Positions 3,812 through 17,536 of a stretch of 17,536 bases of DNA are shown here, piece by piece. The position numbers and the translations under genes were made by a program. The stretch spans positions 1-17,536 of IMG/VR virus record IMGVR_UViG_2648501186_000010, one strand, 5' to 3'. The DNA comes from a virus. Taxonomy: Duplodnaviria > Heunggongvirae > Uroviricota > Caudoviricetes. The first letter of the stretch is position 1. Each line of letters starts with the position of its first letter. Below the pieces are notes generated by a model. The model saw only the letters and a list, made by a program, of their open reading frames with translations. It was not told the DNA's origin and made no database searches.

Positions 3812-4230
3812 AAATTCCGCCGTGTCCGCCGCTGTGGACTTGAGCGCAAAAGCCAGGGTATTTCCATACTTTCCTGTCCCGGATGAGTATCGCGCCGCCC
3901 GATAGTGGCGAACTCCCCCAGCAGATCCGCTTTTGCCCTAGCAAAAACGGCCTTCATATACTGGGCGCACAGGCTGTTCAGTCCGCCCATTTTTACACCT
4001 GGTACCTCTGCCGCCAGCGTGTAGCCTTTCGCTATCCAACTGGACTCCACGTTTTCCAGTTCCGCATTCACCTCCGCCACCGCTGCAAGCAACGCCTGGC
4101 TGATGGTGTCAGCGTCAATATCTGGCGGTAGTGACCGCTGCGCTTGAAAATCCTTCAGATTCAGATCTGGCCAGAATCCGTTATTGGTCAGCGGTTCATC
4201 CTGATAATCCAGCGGCTTTCCGCTAAACAT
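3676..4230 (-). CDS. L: Head completion/stabilisation protein gpL-like; 3' third looks out of frame or chimeric
   Basis: Immediately downstream of gpM as in P2. N-terminal two thirds protein-like (FWPDLNLKDFQAQRSLPPDIDADTISQALLAAVAEVNAELENV...). Last ~70 codons are Arg/Pro/Trp-rich and overlap the TMP frame by >100 nt. ATG at 4230 preceded by GGGGGA; the ORF could also start at GTG 4281. Confidence 0.5.
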   Translation of the reverse strand: MFSGKPLDYQDEPLTNNGFWPDLNLKDFQAQRSLPPDIDADTISQALLAAVAEVNAELENVESSWIAKGYTLAAEVPGVKMGGLNSLCAQYMKAVFARAKADLLGEFATIGRRDTHPGQESMEIPWLLRSSPQRRTRRNLWGRCLVTFPPMPPDWARLNLPSSWRARWFICAKHLAQKWPLSRI

Positions 4231-10534: not shown

Positions 10535-12556
10535 CTATAACCACCCCGGCCACAGTTCCTGCAATGGCTCGTTTTGAGTCTCTTTAAGCCGCCCGTTGCG
10601 GTAAATCAGAGCGCCCTGACCAAATCTCAAACCACTACCCCGCAAGAGAATGGCTATTTCTTCATCAGAACCATCAAAACCCCGACTGCGTAATTCCAGT
10701 TTTAACCGTCTGCGGGCTCCCCCCTCCGTACAGTTATTGACAGAACTCCAAGGGGCGGCGTTGCCGCCAGAAAAACCCGCCTCCGCTGGCGCTTCGGCCA
10801 ACTTCGCAACCTTTTGCCACTTAACCAGACGGGTGCAAACTTCTGAATCAGGAACCAAAGGAGAATAAACCCCCTGTATGCGCTGCACGTCCTCTGCATA
10901 CTCGTTGCCCTGTTCCGTAATTTCATAGGCCAGACGAACAACCAGATCACGGCGGGCAACCAGTGCACCGCCCTGCGCCTGGGTATATGCAGCCCAGTCC
11001 CCGACATCAGCAGCGGCCAGAACCGCATCCATTCTGCGATCGGTCAGCACCTGATCCCGCAACCGACGCAGCTCACGCCAGACAGTTACCGGCGCACCAC
11101 CAATCTGCTGAAACTGACGAATACGCCAGCGTGAAGCCCATGCAGAAACGGACTTAGCCATATCACGCAGGTTTTCGCCGGTTTCTTCGTCATGCTCACC
11201 ATCCAGCGCAAAACCATCAATATTTTTTGAAATGTATTTCGCGATGTAGCCCGTGGCCGAACCTTTGGCGGGATCGATAGCTTCAACATGAAAACGCGCC
11301 TTCAGCGCCTTTTCAGATTGCAGTTCTTCAGAATCGGTAATTCTGGCGTGATAGCAAAGAATATCGCGTACCGTGTCCACGTCATGCGGACGCATAAAAA
11401 GCAACATATGCCAGTGCGGTGTCCCGTCATGGTGAGGCTCAACAACCCGAAACCCAAATACATGAATACCCGCACGCGAGATCGCTGCGCGTGCTTTTGC
11501 CCATACGCCGCATAAATAGCGCTGGGTATCCTGCGGCGTACATCCATCCCATTGCGATACAAAGCCACCTTTGCTGTGCACTGCGTGGAAACGTGATGGC
11601 GCGGTGATGGTGTAAAACTCACCGGCCAGCCCTTCTTCATTGGCCATATCTTCAAACCCTCGCATTCTTACCATTAGTTCACATCGACGGATCGCCGGAT
11701 TTGCAACGCTGCGGTGCACCATGCTGTCCAGTGCAATGCGCAGCCCCTCATCATTCAGCAGATCAAACTTTTTAAAGAACTCCAGATTCCGCTTTTTCTG
11801 GTCTATCCATTCGTCCAGTGTTTTGCGGGATACATAAGCGCTGGCCGCTTTTTGTACCTGTCCCACCGCGATGGCCATATGTTCGCGCTGCATATCACGC
11901 GCACGTTTAAGACGTAGGTACCACCATTCCGGCGCCATCATGCGCAGTATCCCGGATTCCGCCTTACGCATTTCCAGTTGACCTTCATTGGCCTCATGTT
12001 CAGCCCAGTACGGCGGCTGGTTATTCAGCATCAGGCAACCCGCGCAAAGATGGCGGTATGATTCCAAGGTGCGGCGATGCAGCTCTCTGGCGTCGTCAGT
12101 GCCAGAGTCAAACTGTTCGGTGAAGTCATAAAGTGACTGGGAAATCCAACCAGATACCTGGCCAGCCAGTTTTTTAAGATCAGGACGGTCTAGTGACGGC
12201 AAGCGCTCCATCGACTTACCAAAAGGAAGATCAGCAGCGTCAGCGGCCAGCGAGTAACGCGCAGCCACTTTGCGCAGACGTGGCAATACACTCCCGCCGA
12301 TAGTCTGGCGCAGGAATGTATTGGCACGGCGACGCCCGTCACGACCAGCAAACAGCTTTTCGTAACGACGGCCAAAATACCCGGCTAACCAGTCGGGTAT
12401 CTCATGAAGGTACTGTGAGCGCCATTCGTAATCCTGTGGGTTAACCGCCCACAGGCGGCGCTCAGTGAGCGTGGCGTCTGTAGGTGTACCCGGTGCGAAC
12501 GTTTCACGCCGCCAGGTATCGACGGCGTGATGTTGGCCATTGGCGACAGGAGTCAT
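10535..12556 (-). CDS. A: Rolling-circle replication initiator (gpA family, HUH endonuclease)
   Basis: 673 aa with HUH-type motif (GTPHWHMLLF) and catalytic-Tyr motif (YIAKYISK) typical of P2/186 A proteins. Start ATG overlaps the dam stop (ATGA). Confidence 0.85.
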   Translation of the reverse strand: MTPVANGQHHAVDTWRRETFAPGTPTDATLTERRLWAVNPQDYEWRSQYLHEIPDWLAGYFGRRYEKLFAGRDGRRRANTFLRQTIGGSVLPRLRKVAARYSLAADAADLPFGKSMERLPSLDRPDLKKLAGQVSGWISQSLYDFTEQFDSGTDDARELHRRTLESYRHLCAGCLMLNNQPPYWAEHEANEGQLEMRKAESGILRMMAPEWWYLRLKRARDMQREHMAIAVGQVQKAASAYVSRKTLDEWIDQKKRNLEFFKKFDLLNDEGLRIALDSMVHRSVANPAIRRCELMVRMRGFEDMANEEGLAGEFYTITAPSRFHAVHSKGGFVSQWDGCTPQDTQRYLCGVWAKARAAISRAGIHVFGFRVVEPHHDGTPHWHMLLFMRPHDVDTVRDILCYHARITDSEELQSEKALKARFHVEAIDPAKGSATGYIAKYISKNIDGFALDGEHDEETGENLRDMAKSVSAWASRWRIRQFQQIGGAPVTVWRELRRLRDQVLTDRRMDAVLAAADVGDWAAYTQAQGGALVARRDLVVRLAYEITEQGNEYAEDVQRIQGVYSPLVPDSEVCTRLVKWQKVAKLAEAPAEAGFSGGNAAPWSSVNNCTEGGARRRLKLELRSRGFDGSDEEIAILLRGSGLRFGQGALIYRNGRLKETQNEPLQELWPGWL

Positions 12557-13413
12557 GCGCAGGCCATCGCTATAGAACCAAGCGGCGACTTCAGAATTAA
12601 CTCTGCGGCAACTTTCTGGCTTGCAGCTGCGGCACCAACACTACGTGGGGCATTAATGCGAACGGCTTCAAATCCGGCGTACAGGTAATGCACCATTTCC
12701 AGATCGGCATTAGAGGCCACAACCGGCACACCTTTTCTGGCCAGACGGCGCAACTTACGCGCCAGCCTCCCCTGATCCATGTGCGAAAAACCGCGCTCAT
12801 GGTAAGCGGTGAAATTGTCGCTTTCAGTCAGATAAGGCGGATCACAGTAAACAACGTCATTCCCGTCCCGAACCAAATCGAGCGTTTCTGAATAGTGGGC
12901 AGTAATGAACGTTGCGCGTTTCGCTTTTTCAGCAAAGGCACGGATTTCATCAGCGGGAAAATAAGGCTTTTTGTACTTACCGAACGGGACGTTGAACTGG
13001 CCTCGGCGATTATACCGGCACAGGCCATTGAAGCAGTGGCGATTCAGGTACAGGAAACGCGCAGCATTTTCAACAGATTCAGAACCGGCCTTACCACCAG
13101 AAAGATTGAAAGCATCACGCACTGCGTAATAGAAAATGGCACGGCTTTCTTCATCACCTAACGAACCGGCAGTAAACAGGATCTCCAGCTCATTCAGCAG
13201 CGCATCAGTGTGATACGCCATCGCCTTATAAAGATTAACCAGATCAGGATTCACATCTGCGATCAGATACTCGTCATAATCCGTATTCATCATGACAGCG
13301 CAGGAACCTGCGAACGGTTCAACCAGGCGTTTACCTTCTGGAAGGTGCGGACGCAGCATAGGCATAAGGCGGGCTTTGCTGCCCACCCATTTAAGCGGAG
13401 TTTTTATTGCCAT
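12553..13413 (-). CDS. dam: DNA adenine (N6) methyltransferase, Dam-like
   Basis: Motif I (VEPFAGSCAV) and motif IV DPPY; Dam-like N-terminus (WVGSKARL). ATG at 13413 chosen over the upstream in-frame start of the track ORF. Confidence 0.85.
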   Translation of the reverse strand: MAIKTPLKWVGSKARLMPMLRPHLPEGKRLVEPFAGSCAVMMNTDYDEYLIADVNPDLVNLYKAMAYHTDALLNELEILFTAGSLGDEESRAIFYYAVRDAFNLSGGKAGSESVENAARFLYLNRHCFNGLCRYNRRGQFNVPFGKYKKPYFPADEIRAFAEKAKRATFITAHYSETLDLVRDGNDVVYCDPPYLTESDNFTAYHERGFSHMDQGRLARKLRRLARKGVPVVASNADLEMVHYLYAGFEAVRINAPRSVGAAAASQKVAAELILKSPLGSIAMACA

Positions 13414-13637
13414 GCCGCACCGCCTTTGCTGCAAATCGCCGCGGCTTCTTCGCGGATCAACTCAACGATTTCCGTTGCGCTTAAACCTTCATTGGCTGCA
13501 TGGGTGGCCAGCTTATTCAGACGGGTGGAACACAAATCAGCAGCAGCGGCTTTACCTTCCTGCGTGGCTTTGGTGAGCATTGCCAGCAGGTCAGTGACTG
13601 ATTTTGTTGCGGGTAAATCCTGACGTGTCATATGCAT
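13404..13637 (-). CDS. Hypothetical small early protein (77 aa)
   Basis: ATG 13637 (or 13631) with AAGGA RBS; helical, Ala/Glu-rich; 3' end overlaps the dam start by 10 nt. No recognisable motif. Confidence 0.5.
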   Translation of the reverse strand: MHMTRQDLPATKSVTDLLAMLTKATQEGKAAAADLCSTRLNKLATHAANEGLSATEIVELIREEAAAICSKGGAAWQ

Positions 13638-13704
13638 TTTGGTTTCCTTAAGGCAAAAGAATCCCCGGCCACTTGAAACATGGCCAAAAAATTCAGGCGG
13701 TTAA

Positions 13705-14106
13705 TTAGTGAAAAGTGGGGTGTACTGTGGCAGCTGAGTAGTTCGGTACCGGAATCAGGTGCAGTTCATAGGTTGTCCGCCACCACTCCTGGATCAGTGC
13801 ATTTATCTCGCCAACTCCCAGCGCCCCGGCTGTATAGAAAATCGCACGAATCCCCGCCAGCGCTTCTATCTGGGCTTCTTTGCTTTCCGCTTCGCGATAC
13901 ACGCAGCACCAGAAAGCGGCATTGATCGCCAGCCAGTGACGCGGATTCGTCATGTGCTCGGTGTCATTGAAGAAGAACGGATGCAAAGCGATGCGGCCAT
14001 TTTTACTGGTGCTTTTCTCTGTAAACACTACAGCGTAGTTATGCGGGACACCCCACACAGCCAGTTCAGCCCCCAACGATTTACCCTCAACGGAAATAAT
14101 GGTCAT
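13705..14106 (-). CDS. Hypothetical early protein (133 aa)
   Basis: ATG at 14104..14106 overlaps the upstream gene stop (TAATG coupling). Trp/Cys-containing sequence with no family I recognise. Confidence 0.55.
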   Translation of the reverse strand: MTIISVEGKSLGAELAVWGVPHNYAVVFTEKSTSKNGRIALHPFFFNDTEHMTNPRHWLAINAAFWCCVYREAESKEAQIEALAGIRAIFYTAGALGVGEINALIQEWWRTTYELHLIPVPNYSAATVHPTFH

Positions 14107-14534
14107 TAGTGATTCCCCTGTTGCTGGAACTTATGGACGATATGAGGTGCAATCACCATCTGTACCCCACTACTGCTATAAATTGGATGTGCCTTTTTGA
14201 TCGGGCGGTTCGCGGTGCGCTTTGAAAAATCGCTGTCACGTAAACTGCCGAAACCTTCAAACGTTAACCGCGCCCGTGAAATGCCCTGGCGCAGTTGAAT
14301 CATGTCCCGATAGCCCAGGCGTTCATAAATCTCACGCCAGCAACATTTGCTTAAGTGGGCTTTAAATGCCCCGGAACCAGAAGTAACCGCAGCAGCATGA
14401 AGCACCACGCCGCGCCACTCCGGTGTTAAGTTGTCCCACCATTCAGCGGCCTCGCTGCTTTCGTTGAAGTATTTGCGGCGAATCTGTTTTAAATGCTCCA
14501 GCCCGCGCTTTTGCTGTTCCTGGCTAATCGCCAT
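14106..14534 (-). CDS. Hypothetical early protein (143 aa from ATG 14534; the ORF could instead start at GTG 14729, giving 207 aa)
   Basis: ATG 14534 preceded by GGGGG RBS (tataGGGGGcgttATG). The longer model starts at a GTG overlapping the cII stop. Occupies the fil/dhr/B position of 186/P2. Confidence 0.5.
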   Translation of the reverse strand: MAISQEQQKRGLEHLKQIRRKYFNESSEAAEWWDNLTPEWRGVVLHAAAVTSGSGAFKAHLSKCCWREIYERLGYRDMIQLRQGISRARLTFEGFGSLRDSDFSKRTANRPIKKAHPIYSSSGVQMVIAPHIVHKFQQQGNH

Positions 14535-14542
14535 AACGCCCC

Positions 14543-14716
14543 CTATAGTCCCATCAGACGACGCCACCACGGGCGGCGCGGCTGCTGGCCATTGAATTTG
14601 TACATGTGGCCAGGGTTCCAGCGCTGACCGTTTGGCAGTTCTATCCAGCCCGTTGAACCACTCGGCAACTGCATGGCTGGTGATTCTTTTTTCAGGTAAG
14701 TGACAAACGCTTTCAT
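14543..14716 (-). CDS. Candidate small ORF (57 aa) directly downstream of cII, alternative frame to the 207 aa model
   Basis: ATG at 14716 preceded by GAGGGA RBS, 10 nt after the cII stop; the stop at 14543..14545 lies 8 nt before the ATG at 14534. Translation MKAFVTYLKKESPAMQLPSGSTGWIELPNGQRWNPGHMYKFNGQQPRRPWWRRLMGL. Below the size cutoff of the supplied track. Confidence 0.3.
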   Translation of the reverse strand: MKAFVTYLKKESPAMQLPSGSTGWIELPNGQRWNPGHMYKFNGQQPRRPWWRRLMGL

Positions 14717-14725
14717 GGTGTTCCC

Positions 14726-15229
14726 TCACATCAGGCCGGTGGCGTTGGTTGTGACCAGCTCCACCGCCGCAGCCAGAACAGGCGCAGAGTGAATACGGCT
14801 TTCAACGGTATAAGCCAGCACGGATAAGCTACGGATTGCATCGCGGGCACGATCCAGAATTTGAGTACGGCGGGCGGCAGTCATATAGCCAGTTGATACG
14901 GCTTCCCCAGCAATCGCGCCCACACTGGCTGTGGCACTCAGTGCGCACAACTGCATGTTGCCTTCTGTGGCATTGTTCACCGGCACGGATGGAAGGCAGT
15001 TAATCTGACCTAACATCCCATCAAGCAAACGCGCATCTTCGGTGTAATCCGTGATAGCCAAAAGCTCATCACAGGTCAGGCGGTGCGGTTGTGCTGGGTT
15101 CAGTTTGTTGCGCAGGATCTGCGGCCTCATACCAACGGCAGCGGCCACATCTTCAAGATTGTGCTCAATTGCAAATGCTCGGCAAGCCGCATCAAAGTGC
15201 GCATGTTTAGAGGTCTGGTAATCAAACAT
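14726..15229 (-). CDS. cII: CII-like transcriptional activator (phage 186 CII family)
   Basis: N-terminus MFDYQTSKHAHFDAACRAFA closely resembles my recollection of 186 CII (MFDFQVSKHPHYDEACRAFA), with similar length (167 aa). Sits between apl and the early genes; GGGAGAGG RBS. Confidence 0.8.
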   Translation of the reverse strand: MFDYQTSKHAHFDAACRAFAIEHNLEDVAAAVGMRPQILRNKLNPAQPHRLTCDELLAITDYTEDARLLDGMLGQINCLPSVPVNNATEGNMQLCALSATASVGAIAGEAVSTGYMTAARRTQILDRARDAIRSLSVLAYTVESRIHSAPVLAAAVELVTTNATGLM

Positions 15230-15616: not shown

Positions 15617-16198
15617 ATGAGCACATTTAAAATCGACCTAAACGTAGATAGCACACCGATTCTTGACAGGGTGATCGAGGCTTACGGATTTACGCAGAAG
15701 TTACAGCTCGCGGAACATCTGGACATGGCAGCCAGTTCTCTTTCTTCACGCTACAAGCGTGGAGTTTTCCCGGCAGACATTGTCGTGAAATGTGTAGCCG
15801 AAACAGGCGCTAATCTGGAGTGGCTGGCGACAGGACAGGGACGTAAATTTAATGATGATGAATTAGACATACTCAAAATACCGCGCAGCAAGATTGTTGA
15901 TGGCCAACTCTATGACGCTGGCACACTTATGCTTGATAAAGTCATCTTCCTGCCTGGTAAGCCCTTACCGCAACAACCGATTTGTGTTCTGGATGGCCTT
16001 GTTCAGTACATTGTTGACCAGTCTTATTCTGAAGTTTATGACGATGATTGGTTGGTTGAAGTTGAAGGAAAAACAAGCGTCCGCACTCTTACACGGATTC
16101 CGGTACGAAAAGTCAGAGTTAGCGGTGTTGGTATGGCATTTGATTGCGGAATTGACGACATAAAAATCATAGGCCGCGTTGTTCTGACGATAAAATAA
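15617..16198 (+). CDS. cI: CI immunity repressor (phage 186 CI family)
   Basis: LDRVIEAYGFTQKLQLAEHLDMAASSLSSRYKRGVFPADIVVKCVAETGANLEWLATGQG matches my recollection of the 186 CI N-terminal HTH domain; C-terminal FDCGIDDIKIIGRVV also matches. ATG 15617 gives 193 aa (186 CI is 192). Stop is 1 nt before the int ATG. Confidence 0.85.
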   Translation: MSTFKIDLNVDSTPILDRVIEAYGFTQKLQLAEHLDMAASSLSSRYKRGVFPADIVVKCVAETGANLEWLATGQGRKFNDDELDILKIPRSKIVDGQLYDAGTLMLDKVIFLPGKPLPQQPICVLDGLVQYIVDQSYSEVYDDDWLVEVEGKTSVRTLTRIPVRKVRVSGVGMAFDCGIDDIKIIGRVVLTIK

Positions 16199-16199
16199 A

Positions 16200-17240
16200 A
16201 TGAGCGTTCGTAAACTTCCTACAGGCGAATGGATCGCCGACTTCTACACCGTCAACCGCAGTAATGGCAAGAACGGGAAGCGTATACGTAAAAAATTTGC
16301 CACGAAAGGGGAAGCCCTGGCATTCGAAAACCATACGCTTCAGAAAGTAGACGCAGCTCCGTGGCTGGGTGAAGGGAAGGACAAGCGAACTTTAATAGAT
16401 CTGATAACAATGTGGTATGAACGCCACGGCGTAGCTTTGAGCAATGGCGAAAAGCGTAAAAATGCTATGACCTGGGCGGCGGAATGCATGGGATTCCCGC
16501 TGGCCACAGAATTTAATGCCCAGTTGTTCACAGCCTACCGCGCTAAAAGGCTGGATGGGCATTATGCCCGTACCAACAGAGTATCTAAGGTTTCCCCGAA
16601 AACTATGAACCTTGAACATGCTTACTTCCTGGCTATGTTCAACGAGCTGAAACGGATTGGTGAATGGTCAGCACCCAACCCACTAGAAAACGTCAGACAG
16701 TATCGTACTGATGAAACCGAAATGGCTTTCCTCACTACCGAAGAAATTGATCGGCTTTTACTGGAATGCAAACGAAGTAAAGTTAAGTACCTAGAATTAG
16801 TTGTCAAAATCTGCCTTGCTACCGGCGCAAGGTGGAATGAGGCGGCAACGCTGAAAAGCTCCCAGATCGCCGGGGGTAAAGTCACGTTCGTCAAAACCAA
16901 AGGGAAGCGCAACAGAACAATTCCCCTTGATGATGAACTTCTGTCCGAATTGCCTGAAACAAAAGGCGCTCTGTTCCCCAAGCCCTGCTACAACGCTTTC
17001 CGCTCTGCTCTGGAACGTGCAGGCATTGAACTCCCCTCCGGCCAGCTTACCCATGTACTGCGCCATACATTTGCCAGCCACTTTATGATGAACGGCGGAA
17101 ACATTCTGGTTCTGCAAAAAATTCTCGGCCACGCTGACATCACTATGACAATGCGTTATGCCCATTTCGCCCCAAGCCACCTTGAAGATGCCGTGCGACT
17201 TAACCCCTTAAAATGTCGCAAAAATGTCGCGACAGCTTAG
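16200..17240 (+). CDS. int: Tyrosine recombinase / phage integrase (P2/186 Int family)
   Basis: 346 aa with C-terminal catalytic motifs (LRHTFASHF...ILGHADITMTMRYAHF). Immediately downstream of cI, as in 186. Confidence 0.9.
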   Translation: MSVRKLPTGEWIADFYTVNRSNGKNGKRIRKKFATKGEALAFENHTLQKVDAAPWLGEGKDKRTLIDLITMWYERHGVALSNGEKRKNAMTWAAECMGFPLATEFNAQLFTAYRAKRLDGHYARTNRVSKVSPKTMNLEHAYFLAMFNELKRIGEWSAPNPLENVRQYRTDETEMAFLTTEEIDRLLLECKRSKVKYLELVVKICLATGARWNEAATLKSSQIAGGKVTFVKTKGKRNRTIPLDDELLSELPETKGALFPKPCYNAFRSALERAGIELPSGQLTHVLRHTFASHFMMNGGNILVLQKILGHADITMTMRYAHFAPSHLEDAVRLNPLKCRKNVATA

Positions 17241-17407: not shown

Positions 17408-17536
17408 ATGAATGAGTTCAAGAGGTGTATGCGCGTGTTTAGTCATTCTCCCTTTAAAGTACGGTTAATGCTGCTCTCTATGTTGTGCGATATGGTCAAC
17501 AACAAACCGCAGCAAGATAAACCTTCCGATAAATAG
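17408..17536 (+). CDS. Small ORF (42 aa), hydrophobic and Cys-containing; probably a flanking host gene
   Basis: Strong RBS (CAGGAGG, 4 nt spacer) before ATG 17408; the stop is the last codon of the window. Translation MNEFKRCMRVFSHSPFKVRLMLLSMLCDMVNNKPQQDKPSDK. Confidence 0.4.
   Translation: MNEFKRCMRVFSHSPFKVRLMLLSMLCDMVNNKPQQDKPSDK

Follow-up and report, generated by a model that had tools for sequence, protein, structure and literature searches.

The DNA immediately downstream of the cII gene in the 17,536-nt viral stretch analysed here (the window) can be read in two ways, either as one open frame of 207 codons or as a 57-aa ORF followed by a longer ORF that shares the end of the 207-codon frame. 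The question that this locus raises is which of the two readings corresponds to genes. The first-pass annotation, which relied on the sequence alone, had called the gene structure ambiguous. Its coordinates for the 207-codon frame (14106-14729) and for the start codons ATG 14716 and ATG 14534 are right, and so are its statements that the GTG overlaps the cII stop, that no internal methionine follows for 65 codons, and that the 57-aa ORF stops 8 nt ahead of ATG 14534, which is preceded by GGGGG. Only 142 aa are encoded by the downstream ORF, which had been given as 143 aa. The features of the region are compiled in Table 1.

Table 1. Features of the region downstream of cII, in window positions
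Feature	Position	Strand	Size	Assignment or remark
cII gene	14726..15229	-	167 aa	Pfam PF06892 Phage_CP76, E = 1.8e-46
207-codon open frame	14106..14729	-	207 codons	GTG 14729-14727 overlaps the cII stop; not a gene
Shine-Dalgarno-like GAGGGA of fil	14722..14727	-		overlaps the cII stop, 5 nt before ATG 14716
fil homologue	14543..14716	-	57 aa + TAG stop (14545-14543)	Pfam PF10893
Shine-Dalgarno-like AGGGGG of the 142-aa gene	14539..14544	-		overlaps the fil stop, 4 nt before ATG 14534
142-aa gene	14106..14534	-	429 nt with stop	phrog_33841, E = 6.8e-39
133-aa gene	13705..14106	-	133 aa	phrog_3935, E = 8e-52
Terminator-like hairpin	13652..13690	-	11-pair stem + T-rich tail	consensus scan

For a 99.9%-identical prophage, that of E. 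coli 1919D3 (RefSeq, PGAP), the public annotation lists a 'phage filamentation protein Fil family protein' (174 nt) and a 'hypothetical protein' (429 nt) downstream of the cII gene, which is named 'phage regulatory CII family protein'. The same two genes have been annotated by RefSeq on the Escherichia phage ESSI2_ev015 (Peduoviridae, Quadragintavirus). Its gp35 and gp34 are identical to the window in architecture and spacing, the Fil proteins being 100% and the 142-aa proteins 98% identical; ESSI2_ev015 differs in that two additional genes separate the DUF2732 gene from dam, but not in the fil/142-aa region. Because the public annotation has two genes here, there is no real ambiguity of gene structure, and both genes are ordinary and already known from existing prophage annotation. 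The value of the present finding thus lies mainly in quality control, the public annotation being correct at present. If the longest ORF were called at this place, a real 57-aa host-takeover gene would be lost and the next protein would be given a false N-terminus of 65 residues.

On the minus strand, the order of the genes is cox/apl, cII, fil, the 142-aa gene, the 133-aa gene, a putative terminator-like hairpin, the DUF2732 gene, dam and A. With high probability, the stretch after cII belongs to the early lytic operon of a P2/186-like prophage and contains two distinct and translationally adjacent genes. The evidence described below establishes the two-gene structure, and from the relatives of the two proteins we infer their functions. 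The 133-aa gene, whose ATG shares bases with the stop codon of the 142-aa gene (TAATG), accompanies the latter as a conserved partner on its downstream side; it is also located 3' of the 142-aa homologue in the Yersinia phage YenM_324 and the Cronobacter phage ESSI-2. The hairpin, which separates the 133-aa gene from the DUF2732 gene, corresponds in position to tR1 of phage 186, located after dhr, and to the putative terminator that follows B in phage P2.

The 57-aa ORF matches Pfam family PF10893, to which Fil of phage 186 belongs, with 40.1 bits, the cut-off being 25 (E = 3e-10). Among the PHROGs, it matches phrog_7623 (E = 4.5e-30) and phrog_816, 'cell division inhibitor' (E = 3.3e-8), and PF10893 is present in 77 of 77 database homologues of the window's Fil. 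Judged by sequence, the matches to PF10893 and PHROG 7623 are far beyond chance and identify the ORF as a member of the phage 186 Fil family. The suggestion of the first-pass annotation that a short host-takeover gene as in 186 might be located here was therefore well founded, since the small ORF belongs to the 186 Fil family. Like the ORF in the window, 186 Fil (NP_052282; PF10893, formerly DUF2724) is small and encoded first after cII in the early lytic operon, and both proteins have the N-terminal core F..L.K.SP....GWI...G.RW.P. However, with 57 aa the window's Fil is shorter than 186 Fil (75 aa), the alignment is limited to aa 3-35 (39% identity), the basic and aromatic C-terminal tail (PRRPWWRRLMGL) is unlike that of 186 Fil, and the best PHROG is 7623 and not 816. 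The order cox-cII-fil is common to the window, 186, ev015, ev040, YenM_324 and E. coli prophages. In Cronobacter ESSI-2, a Fil ORF is present at the same place and has been left unannotated.

The fil reading frame is intact in all distinct IMG/VR loci (68/68) and in all reference loci (10/10). Its variable columns are distributed over the three codon positions as 2/2/18, and dN/dS in this frame is 0.02-0.15, which indicates that the frame is maintained by purifying selection. As noted in the GenBank record of phage 186, its Fil protein has filamentation activity. By homology, the window's Fil probably blocks host cell division as well, which would happen once the early operon is expressed. A literature search for the mechanism of Fil, DUF2724 and PF10893 returned nothing relevant, and the AF2 model of Fil is too poor for use (pLDDT 60, pTM 0.22). 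Small early phage proteins that cause filamentation are known from lambda (Kil) and T7 (Gp0.4) (PMC3961180, PMC13423816). They act on FtsZ; they resemble the window's Fil in being small and early but have no sequence relationship to it.

The junctions of the genes also argue for two translation starts. For the 57-aa ORF, the first-pass annotation had described a ribosome-binding site, GAGGGA, 10 nt after the cII stop. The motif is present, but it overlaps the cII stop, while it is the ATG that starts at the tenth nucleotide after the stop. Ahead of fil, GAGG/GGGA is kept in 10/10 reference loci with a variable spacer of 7-10 nt. Likewise, loci from four genera (Escherichia, Salmonella, Cronobacter and Yersinia) have kept GGGGG at a distance of 4-5 nt from the ATG or GTG of the next gene, and the start ATG of the 142-aa gene is kept in 68/68 loci. 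The junction between fil and the next gene occurs in seven forms, five with a spacer (7, 8, 9, 11 or 12 nt) and two in which the genes overlap (by 4 or 11 nt). Therefore, the relative frame of the two genes takes all three possible values, while ATG 14534 and its GGGGG stay fixed. Translation of the 142-aa gene starts at ATG 14534, and as AGGGGG overlaps the fil stop, ribosomes leaving fil could re-engage there.

The first methionine of the 207-codon frame is codon 66, and the 65 codons preceding it are an off-frame read-through of fil. Only the window and its nearest relatives have it unbroken (3/10 reference and 7/68 IMG/VR loci). Followed upstream, the 142-aa frame stays open for no more than 3-60 codons at 7 of the 10 reference loci and 61 of the 68 IMG/VR loci, and the long frame is interrupted there by stop codons, by 1-nt indels in both spacers and by alternative Fil tails. 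Its dN/dS is 0.4-2.1, and homologues carry stops. The comparison of conservation and dN/dS in both frames, which had been proposed as a check, came out clearly: the 57-aa frame is kept with synonymous-biased substitutions and the 207-aa frame has acquired stops and frameshifts, which is the opposite of a family preserving only the 207-aa frame with stop codons in the 57-aa frame. A single 207-aa protein translated from the GTG, with the 57-aa ORF as a non-coding shadow, would agree with the open frame in the window and in two reference loci (L001 and L003), and the ATGTGA at the 3' end of cII (...CTG ATG TGA) looks like a coupling signal. However, no Shine-Dalgarno sequence precedes the GTG, the frame is closed in the large majority of related loci counted above, its dN/dS lies around 1 or above, the 57-aa frame has a significant Pfam match and evolves under purifying selection, and all database homologues of the C-terminal part begin at the internal methionine. 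On these comparative data, the reading as one protein is to be regarded as already refuted, its probability being practically nil.

The two genes could also be accompanied by a minor long isoform of the 142-aa protein, specific for the sub-lineage and produced by termination-reinitiation at ATGTGA. Such an isoform is very improbable. It is true that the window, ev015 and about 10% of the related loci have an uninterrupted frame beginning at GTG 14729, and that, if Fil is recoded synonymously, just 4.2% of the sequences retain this open frame. However, the N-terminal extension is not conserved and shows no sign of selection, translation would have to pass through the efficiently initiated fil frame, and open runs of comparable length are common out of frame in neighbouring genes: of seven genes checked within the window, five have off-frame stretches of 56-121 codons free of stops. 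Given the recoding and off-frame-run figures, the openness of the long frame is not remarkable. The 207-codon frame is best understood as an accidental stop-free off-frame reading of fil that is limited to the window's sub-lineage. A dual-coding overlap was also considered and rejected, as the fil frame alone is conserved and the long frame has stops and frameshifts in most relatives. The database protein P0178, which resembles a fusion of Fil with the product of the second gene, had raised the idea of a programmed frameshift or Fil fusion. This idea was rejected as well: both genes carry nonsense codons at this locus, a decayed copy, and the apparent fusion is a gene-caller artefact.

The second of the two genes encodes a protein of a small family (phrog_33841) that is confined to Enterobacterales prophages; in a set of 1.84 billion proteins, it forms only about 40 clusters at 50% identity. 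The 105 homologues of the 142-aa protein are mostly 141-146 aa long, and none is near 207 aa. According to an AF2 model of moderate quality (pLDDT 67), residues 1-93 would form a helical N-terminal domain, to which a low-confidence linker is joined; the C-terminal part has a conserved motif, VQMVIAP. No Pfam family is matched by the 142-aa protein, none of the three proteins gave a match in NCBIfam or PADLOC, a direct comparison with P2 Orf78 found nothing, and a genome-contig search with the single 142-aa sequence yielded no confirmed locus. The expectation that fil and dhr follow cII as in 186 holds for fil. However, the second gene is not dhr; its product gives no BLASTP alignment to 186 Dhr, and the two proteins, both encoded directly after fil, differ in size and PHROG (Dhr, 66 aa, phrog_6069). 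By these comparisons, the 142-aa protein is not a Dhr homologue.

Several profile comparisons point to the replication protein B of phage P2 (gpB, PF26815), whose gene has the corresponding place in the operon, ahead of the terminator and the DUF2732 gene. Using hhalign, a diverse alignment of the 142-aa family could be aligned with the gpB family with Prob 43% and E = 2.5e-4 (aa 26-108 on gpB aa 29-102). The score of 30.5 exceeds those of 200 column shuffles (mean 12.9, maximum 23.5) and that of the reversed control (14.8). Moreover, PHROGs 5349 and 14551 are significantly matched by members of both families, and an HMM of a remote subgroup scores 24/24 gpB sequences in the same register, albeit weakly (7-16 bits). 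The helical make-up and the motif W..L....R..(V/L)(L/F)HA with the following helix are common to the 142-aa protein and P2 gpB. A narrow profile of the 142-aa family was negative against the gpB family (Prob 0.8%), a fold search gave no support for the link, the 142-aa protein shows no pairwise similarity to P2 gpB, and PF26815, which is present in all listed gpB relatives, is found in 0/105 homologues of the 142-aa protein among precomputed Pfam hits. The link to gpB is moderate and not proven. We consider it slightly favoured that the 142-aa protein is related to the N-terminal half of P2 gpB, as a protein with a single domain. The alignment covers only aa ~29-104 of the two-part, ~166-aa architecture of gpB, and the 142-aa family lacks the second repeat and the C-terminal half (aa ~105-166), in place of which it has the linker and VQMVIAP. 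P2 has no counterpart of the extra coupled 133-aa gene. The comparison of the 133-aa protein with the gpB family was negative, and the protein is therefore not the missing C-terminal half of gpB.

According to a record note and to citations of Odegrip et al. 2000, P2 B binds the host DnaB and is needed for lagging-strand synthesis of the phage; P2 B is also named in a list of DnaB helicase loaders that cites the same study (PMC12661323). By analogy, the 142-aa protein may act in phage DNA replication via binding of the host DnaB helicase, a role that we hold with less confidence than the homology itself. The alternative to be weighed against this is that the second gene serves not replication but host takeover or anti-defence, its product being functionally analogous to 186 Dhr. 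For such a function speak the position next to fil, which in 186 is taken by dhr, the lack of a Pfam or NCBIfam family, the restriction of a small family to Enterobacterales prophages, and the disordered linker with an invariant short C-terminal motif, which is typical of docking peptides; for example, the VQMVIAP peptide might sequester a host replication protein. However, there is neither similarity to Dhr nor a shared PHROG, and the profile, HMM and PHROG links lead to gpB instead. With regard to anti-defence, which the first-pass annotation had brought up for compact early ORFs, nothing points there, including the PADLOC scan. We regard a Dhr-like function as rather unlikely. It would be compatible with DnaB binding, so that the two readings are not exclusive.

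The possible link to gpB provides the 142-aa protein, which has no annotated function, with a testable hypothesis, namely DnaB binding. More tentatively, phrog_33841 could represent an unrecognised single-domain branch of the gpB superfamily, in which the C-terminal half has been swapped for the linker, which would be flexible, and for VQMVIAP as an invariant docking peptide, and which partners with the coupled 133-aa gene. If this were true, P2-like phages would have a new way to recruit or sequester the host replicative helicase.

In the window, cII is followed by two genes, a 57-aa homologue of fil and a 142-aa gene (gene 2), as far as this can be established by sequence comparison. The first-pass annotation had weighed this arrangement against a single 207-aa ORF, and its coordinates all proved correct when the sequence was re-checked, apart from the length of the downstream ORF, which is 142 and not 143 aa. 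A frame of 207 codons starts with GTG 14729, which shares nucleotides with the cII TGA; its first Met is codon 66. The 57-codon ORF runs from ATG 14716 to a TAG stop at 14545-14543, and ATG 14534 is found 8 nt past its end. GAGGGA (14727-14722) overlaps the cII stop and AGGGGG (14544-14539) overlaps the fil stop, each at Shine-Dalgarno distance from the ATG that follows (14716 and 14534, respectively), and the gene 2 stop shares bases with the start codon of the 133-aa gene (TAATG). The arrangement GGGGG, 4-5 nt and ATG or GTG is kept in Escherichia, Salmonella, Cronobacter and Yersinia. Because of this overlapping Shine-Dalgarno, stop and start geometry, translation may be coupled from cII to fil, gene 2 and the 133-aa gene, and fil and gene 2 are members of a tightly packed early operon.

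Features of the immunity and early region of the prophage
Feature	Coordinates	Strand	Remark
int	16200-17240	+	immunity/early region
cI	end at 16198	+	immunity/early region
cox/apl		-	early region, listed before cII
cII	14726-15229	-	precedes the region in question
fil homologue (57 aa)	14543-14716	-
gene 2 (142 aa)	14106-14534	-
133-aa gene	13705-14106	-	after gene 2
terminator-like hairpin	13652-13690	-	11-pair stem and T-rich tail; between 133-aa and DUF2732 genes
DUF2732 gene	13404-13637	-	after the 133-aa gene
dam		-	after the DUF2732 gene
replication endonuclease A	10535-12556	-

The 57-aa product matches Pfam PF10893 (Phage_186_Fil) with 40.1 bits at a gathering score of 25, as well as phrog_7623 (4.5e-30) and phrog_816 'cell division inhibitor' (3.3e-8). 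Among 5.8 billion clustered proteins it has 77 relatives, all of which (77/77) carry PF10893. The same search yielded 105 relatives of the 142-aa protein, mostly of 141-146 aa and none near 207 aa. The 207-aa product matches phrog_33841 from no earlier than residue 77, corresponding to residue 12 in the 142-aa form. In an alignment of 30 of the 105 relatives, the first residue is Met in 29 and a GTG-encoded Val in the remaining one; the shorter, more distant relatives in this alignment lack about seven N-terminal residues. In the E. coli 1919D3 prophage, which is 99.9% identical, PGAP placed a 'phage filamentation protein Fil family protein' of 174 nt and, after it, a 'hypothetical protein' of 429 nt, and RefSeq contains the same two-gene annotation for the phages ev015 and ev040. 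The gene structure is identical to that of RefSeq, and hence already known.

The Fil frame is unbroken in each of ten reference loci (Escherichia, Salmonella, Cronobacter and Yersinia), and in seven of these the upstream extension of the 142-aa frame stops within 3-25 codons. The long frame is broken by the loss of 1 nt from the cII-fil spacer (reference locus L009), by the gain of 1 nt in the spacer between fil and gene 2 (L007), by a G-to-A substitution that replaces Gly with Ser in Fil and produces TAG in the long frame (L008 and L009), and by alternative Fil C-terminal tails having an 11-nt overlap with the next start (L002 and L006). A further 80 IMG/VR loci represent 68 distinct upstream sequences; Fil is intact and gene 2 starts with ATG in all 68, and the long frame extends to the cII stop in only seven. 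The junction of fil and gene 2 takes seven forms in these loci (spacers of 7, 8, 9, 11 and 12 nt and overlaps of 4 and 11 nt), so that the two genes are found in every possible relative frame.

Within the first 42 Fil codons of seven Escherichia and Salmonella sequences, 2, 2 and 18 columns vary at codon positions 1, 2 and 3, respectively. Nei-Gojobori dN/dS values are 0.02-0.15 in the Fil frame and 0.4-2.1 in the long frame, in which stops are present. The first-pass annotation had named homologues that keep the 207-aa frame alone, with synonymous-biased substitutions there and stops in the 57-aa frame, as what would refute its observation; the reverse was seen, the Fil frame being kept and the long frame containing stops. 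Statistically, there is nothing unusual about the long open frame; it stays open in 4.2% of synonymous Fil recodings, and off-frame open runs of 56-121 codons occur in neighbouring genes. The alternative preferred at first reading, a short gene after cII as in 186, is borne out by the PF10893 match and by conservation. The Fil assignment is routine family membership and the region after cII is ordinary.

According to the phage 186 GenBank record, overexpressed Fil blocks cell division, and by family membership the 57-aa protein would be expected to do so during lytic development. Literature searches revealed no paper defining the target of Fil. Its conserved part comprises residues 1-42 (MKAFVTYLK..SP...L.SG..GWIELPNGQRWNP.H.YKFN) and is followed by a basic, aromatic stretch (PRRPWWRRL), while the far C-terminus varies freely. 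The AF2 model contains only a low-confidence hairpin around WIELPNGQRW (pLDDT 60), which would fit a peptide folding on its target. Variation is concentrated in the C-terminal tail and at the junction with gene 2 (window 14543-14590 and the corresponding positions in IMG/VR loci L014-L093). There are at least three tail types, namely 57 aa ending in LMGL, 64-67 aa ending in GGRYGH or GGSYGH, and 75 aa. The GGRYG at the end of the longer forms is simply what results when the next gene's Shine-Dalgarno sequence and start codon are translated.

An identity with Dhr, which is encoded right after fil in 186, was rejected by comparison with Dhr and by the PHROG assignment, and the 142-aa protein has no match in Pfam, NCBIfam or PADLOC. 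The family is small; when 1.84 billion representative proteins were searched exhaustively with an HMM, 40 clusters reached E ≤1e-3. One homologue (30% identity, 1e-9), from Yersinia phage YenM_324, bears the annotation 'replication protein GpB'. Comparison with P2 gpB was negative both pairwise and with a narrow family profile. By using hhalign, a broader alignment with remote members matched a 24-sequence gpB alignment (Prob 43%, E = 2.5e-4; residues 26-108 of the family against gpB residues 29-102) with a score of 30.5. None of 200 column-shuffled controls reached this score (mean 12.9, sd 2.6, maximum 23.5), nor did a reversed control (14.8). Furthermore, phrog_5349 is matched by 11 of 28 family members (best 3.6e-10) and 9 of 24 gpB members, and phrog_14551 by 9 of 28 (best 8.7e-8) and 24 of 24 (best 3.5e-12), respectively. 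All 24 gpB sequences also receive scores, weak ones of 7-16 bits but in a common register, from an HMM built on the remote subgroup. Gene 2 also occupies exactly the operon place of P2 B, and the hairpin behind the 133-aa gene (13690-13662) is equivalent in position to tR1 of phage 186 and to the putative P2 terminator after B.

Because of these profile, PHROG and HMM links and the shared operon place, we slightly favour the view that gpB has a distant, single-domain relative in the 142-aa protein. The protein lies outside PF26815 as currently defined and lacks the C-terminal half of gpB. This modest suggestion of remote homology seems, as far as we have seen, to be unrecorded for phrog_33841 in the libraries searched. 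In the citing passages of PMC12661323 and PMC11087808, P2 B is counted among the DnaB helicase loaders for its interaction with DnaB (Odegrip et al. 2000), and recruitment of DnaB by the 142-aa protein would be a reasonable hypothesis. In P2 gpB itself (2459-2959 of the P2 locus, L011), the motif R..L.V.FHA.L / RRTLFMHAGL seems to be repeated internally, with copies at aa ~41-53 and ~101-115. The first of these is matched well, and the second weakly, by the remote-subgroup HMM.

The AF2 model of the 142-aa protein (pLDDT 67) consists of a helical domain (residues 1-93) and a low-confidence linker; just ahead of the last helix (130-140) is a short stretch, VQMVIAP, that includes the invariant M126, A129 and P130. 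Fold searches with the protein gave nothing useful. The invariant motif (V/P)(Q/E)M(V/I)IAP after the variable linker (residues ~124-132; window 14130-14160) is kept from Escherichia to Cronobacter and Jejubacter and looks like a putative docking peptide. The N-terminal ~30 residues are mosaic in E. coli MFDS1019527 (L008 867-950), in which a 'EHCKRMRLQINPAYSDAGNWWDNL' version like the Cronobacter ESSI-2 type is joined to an E. coli-type remainder; this mosaic N-terminus suggests recombination inside the gene.

The right half of the window corresponds to the immunity and early region of a prophage of the P2/186-like type (Peduoviridae). Among named phages, ESSI2_ev015, ev040 and ev129 of Escherichia (genus Quadragintavirus) come closest, with 92-96% identity, and nine complete E. 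coli genomes contain a copy at ≥99% identity. The integration site adjoins the host gene mntS, which forms the end of the window (17408-17536, plus strand); the 1919D3 prophage is integrated beside mntS as well. In the window, around 13404-13434, dam directly follows the DUF2732 gene, whereas ev015 and ev040 have two extra genes in between (L001 3386-4302), annotated 'DNA polymerase exonuclease subunit' and 'RNA-binding protein', which is a mosaic difference of the early operon. Compared with the 1919D3 prophage (L094), two internal late-gene blocks are missing, and both cut into the tape-measure gene. The ~5.3-kb block comprises its 3' part together with baseplate J, the tail fibre and the fibre's assembly protein; the ~4.8-kb block comprises its 5' part along with the lysis genes and the region of the tail sheath and tube. 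The junctions lie at 2985-2990 and 3861-3862 with microhomologies of 6 and 2 nt; the window represents a defective prophage or else a spliced sequence, and its early region is intact.

A decayed copy of the fil-gene 2 module is present in L012 (1459-2070; JGI contig Ga0615068_0049) and L013, having nonsense codons at K2 and Y7 of fil and a stop at W33 of the 142-aa gene. A 79-aa 'Fil-gene 2 fusion' (P0178) was dismissed as a spurious gene call on this copy. The fil/gene 2 structure really is mis-annotated in the record of Cronobacter phage ESSI-2 (NC_047854), which leaves a 63-aa Fil homologue (63% identical; L004 1308-1499) unannotated and places three mutually overlapping 'hypothetical' CDSs across the homologue of the 142-aa gene.
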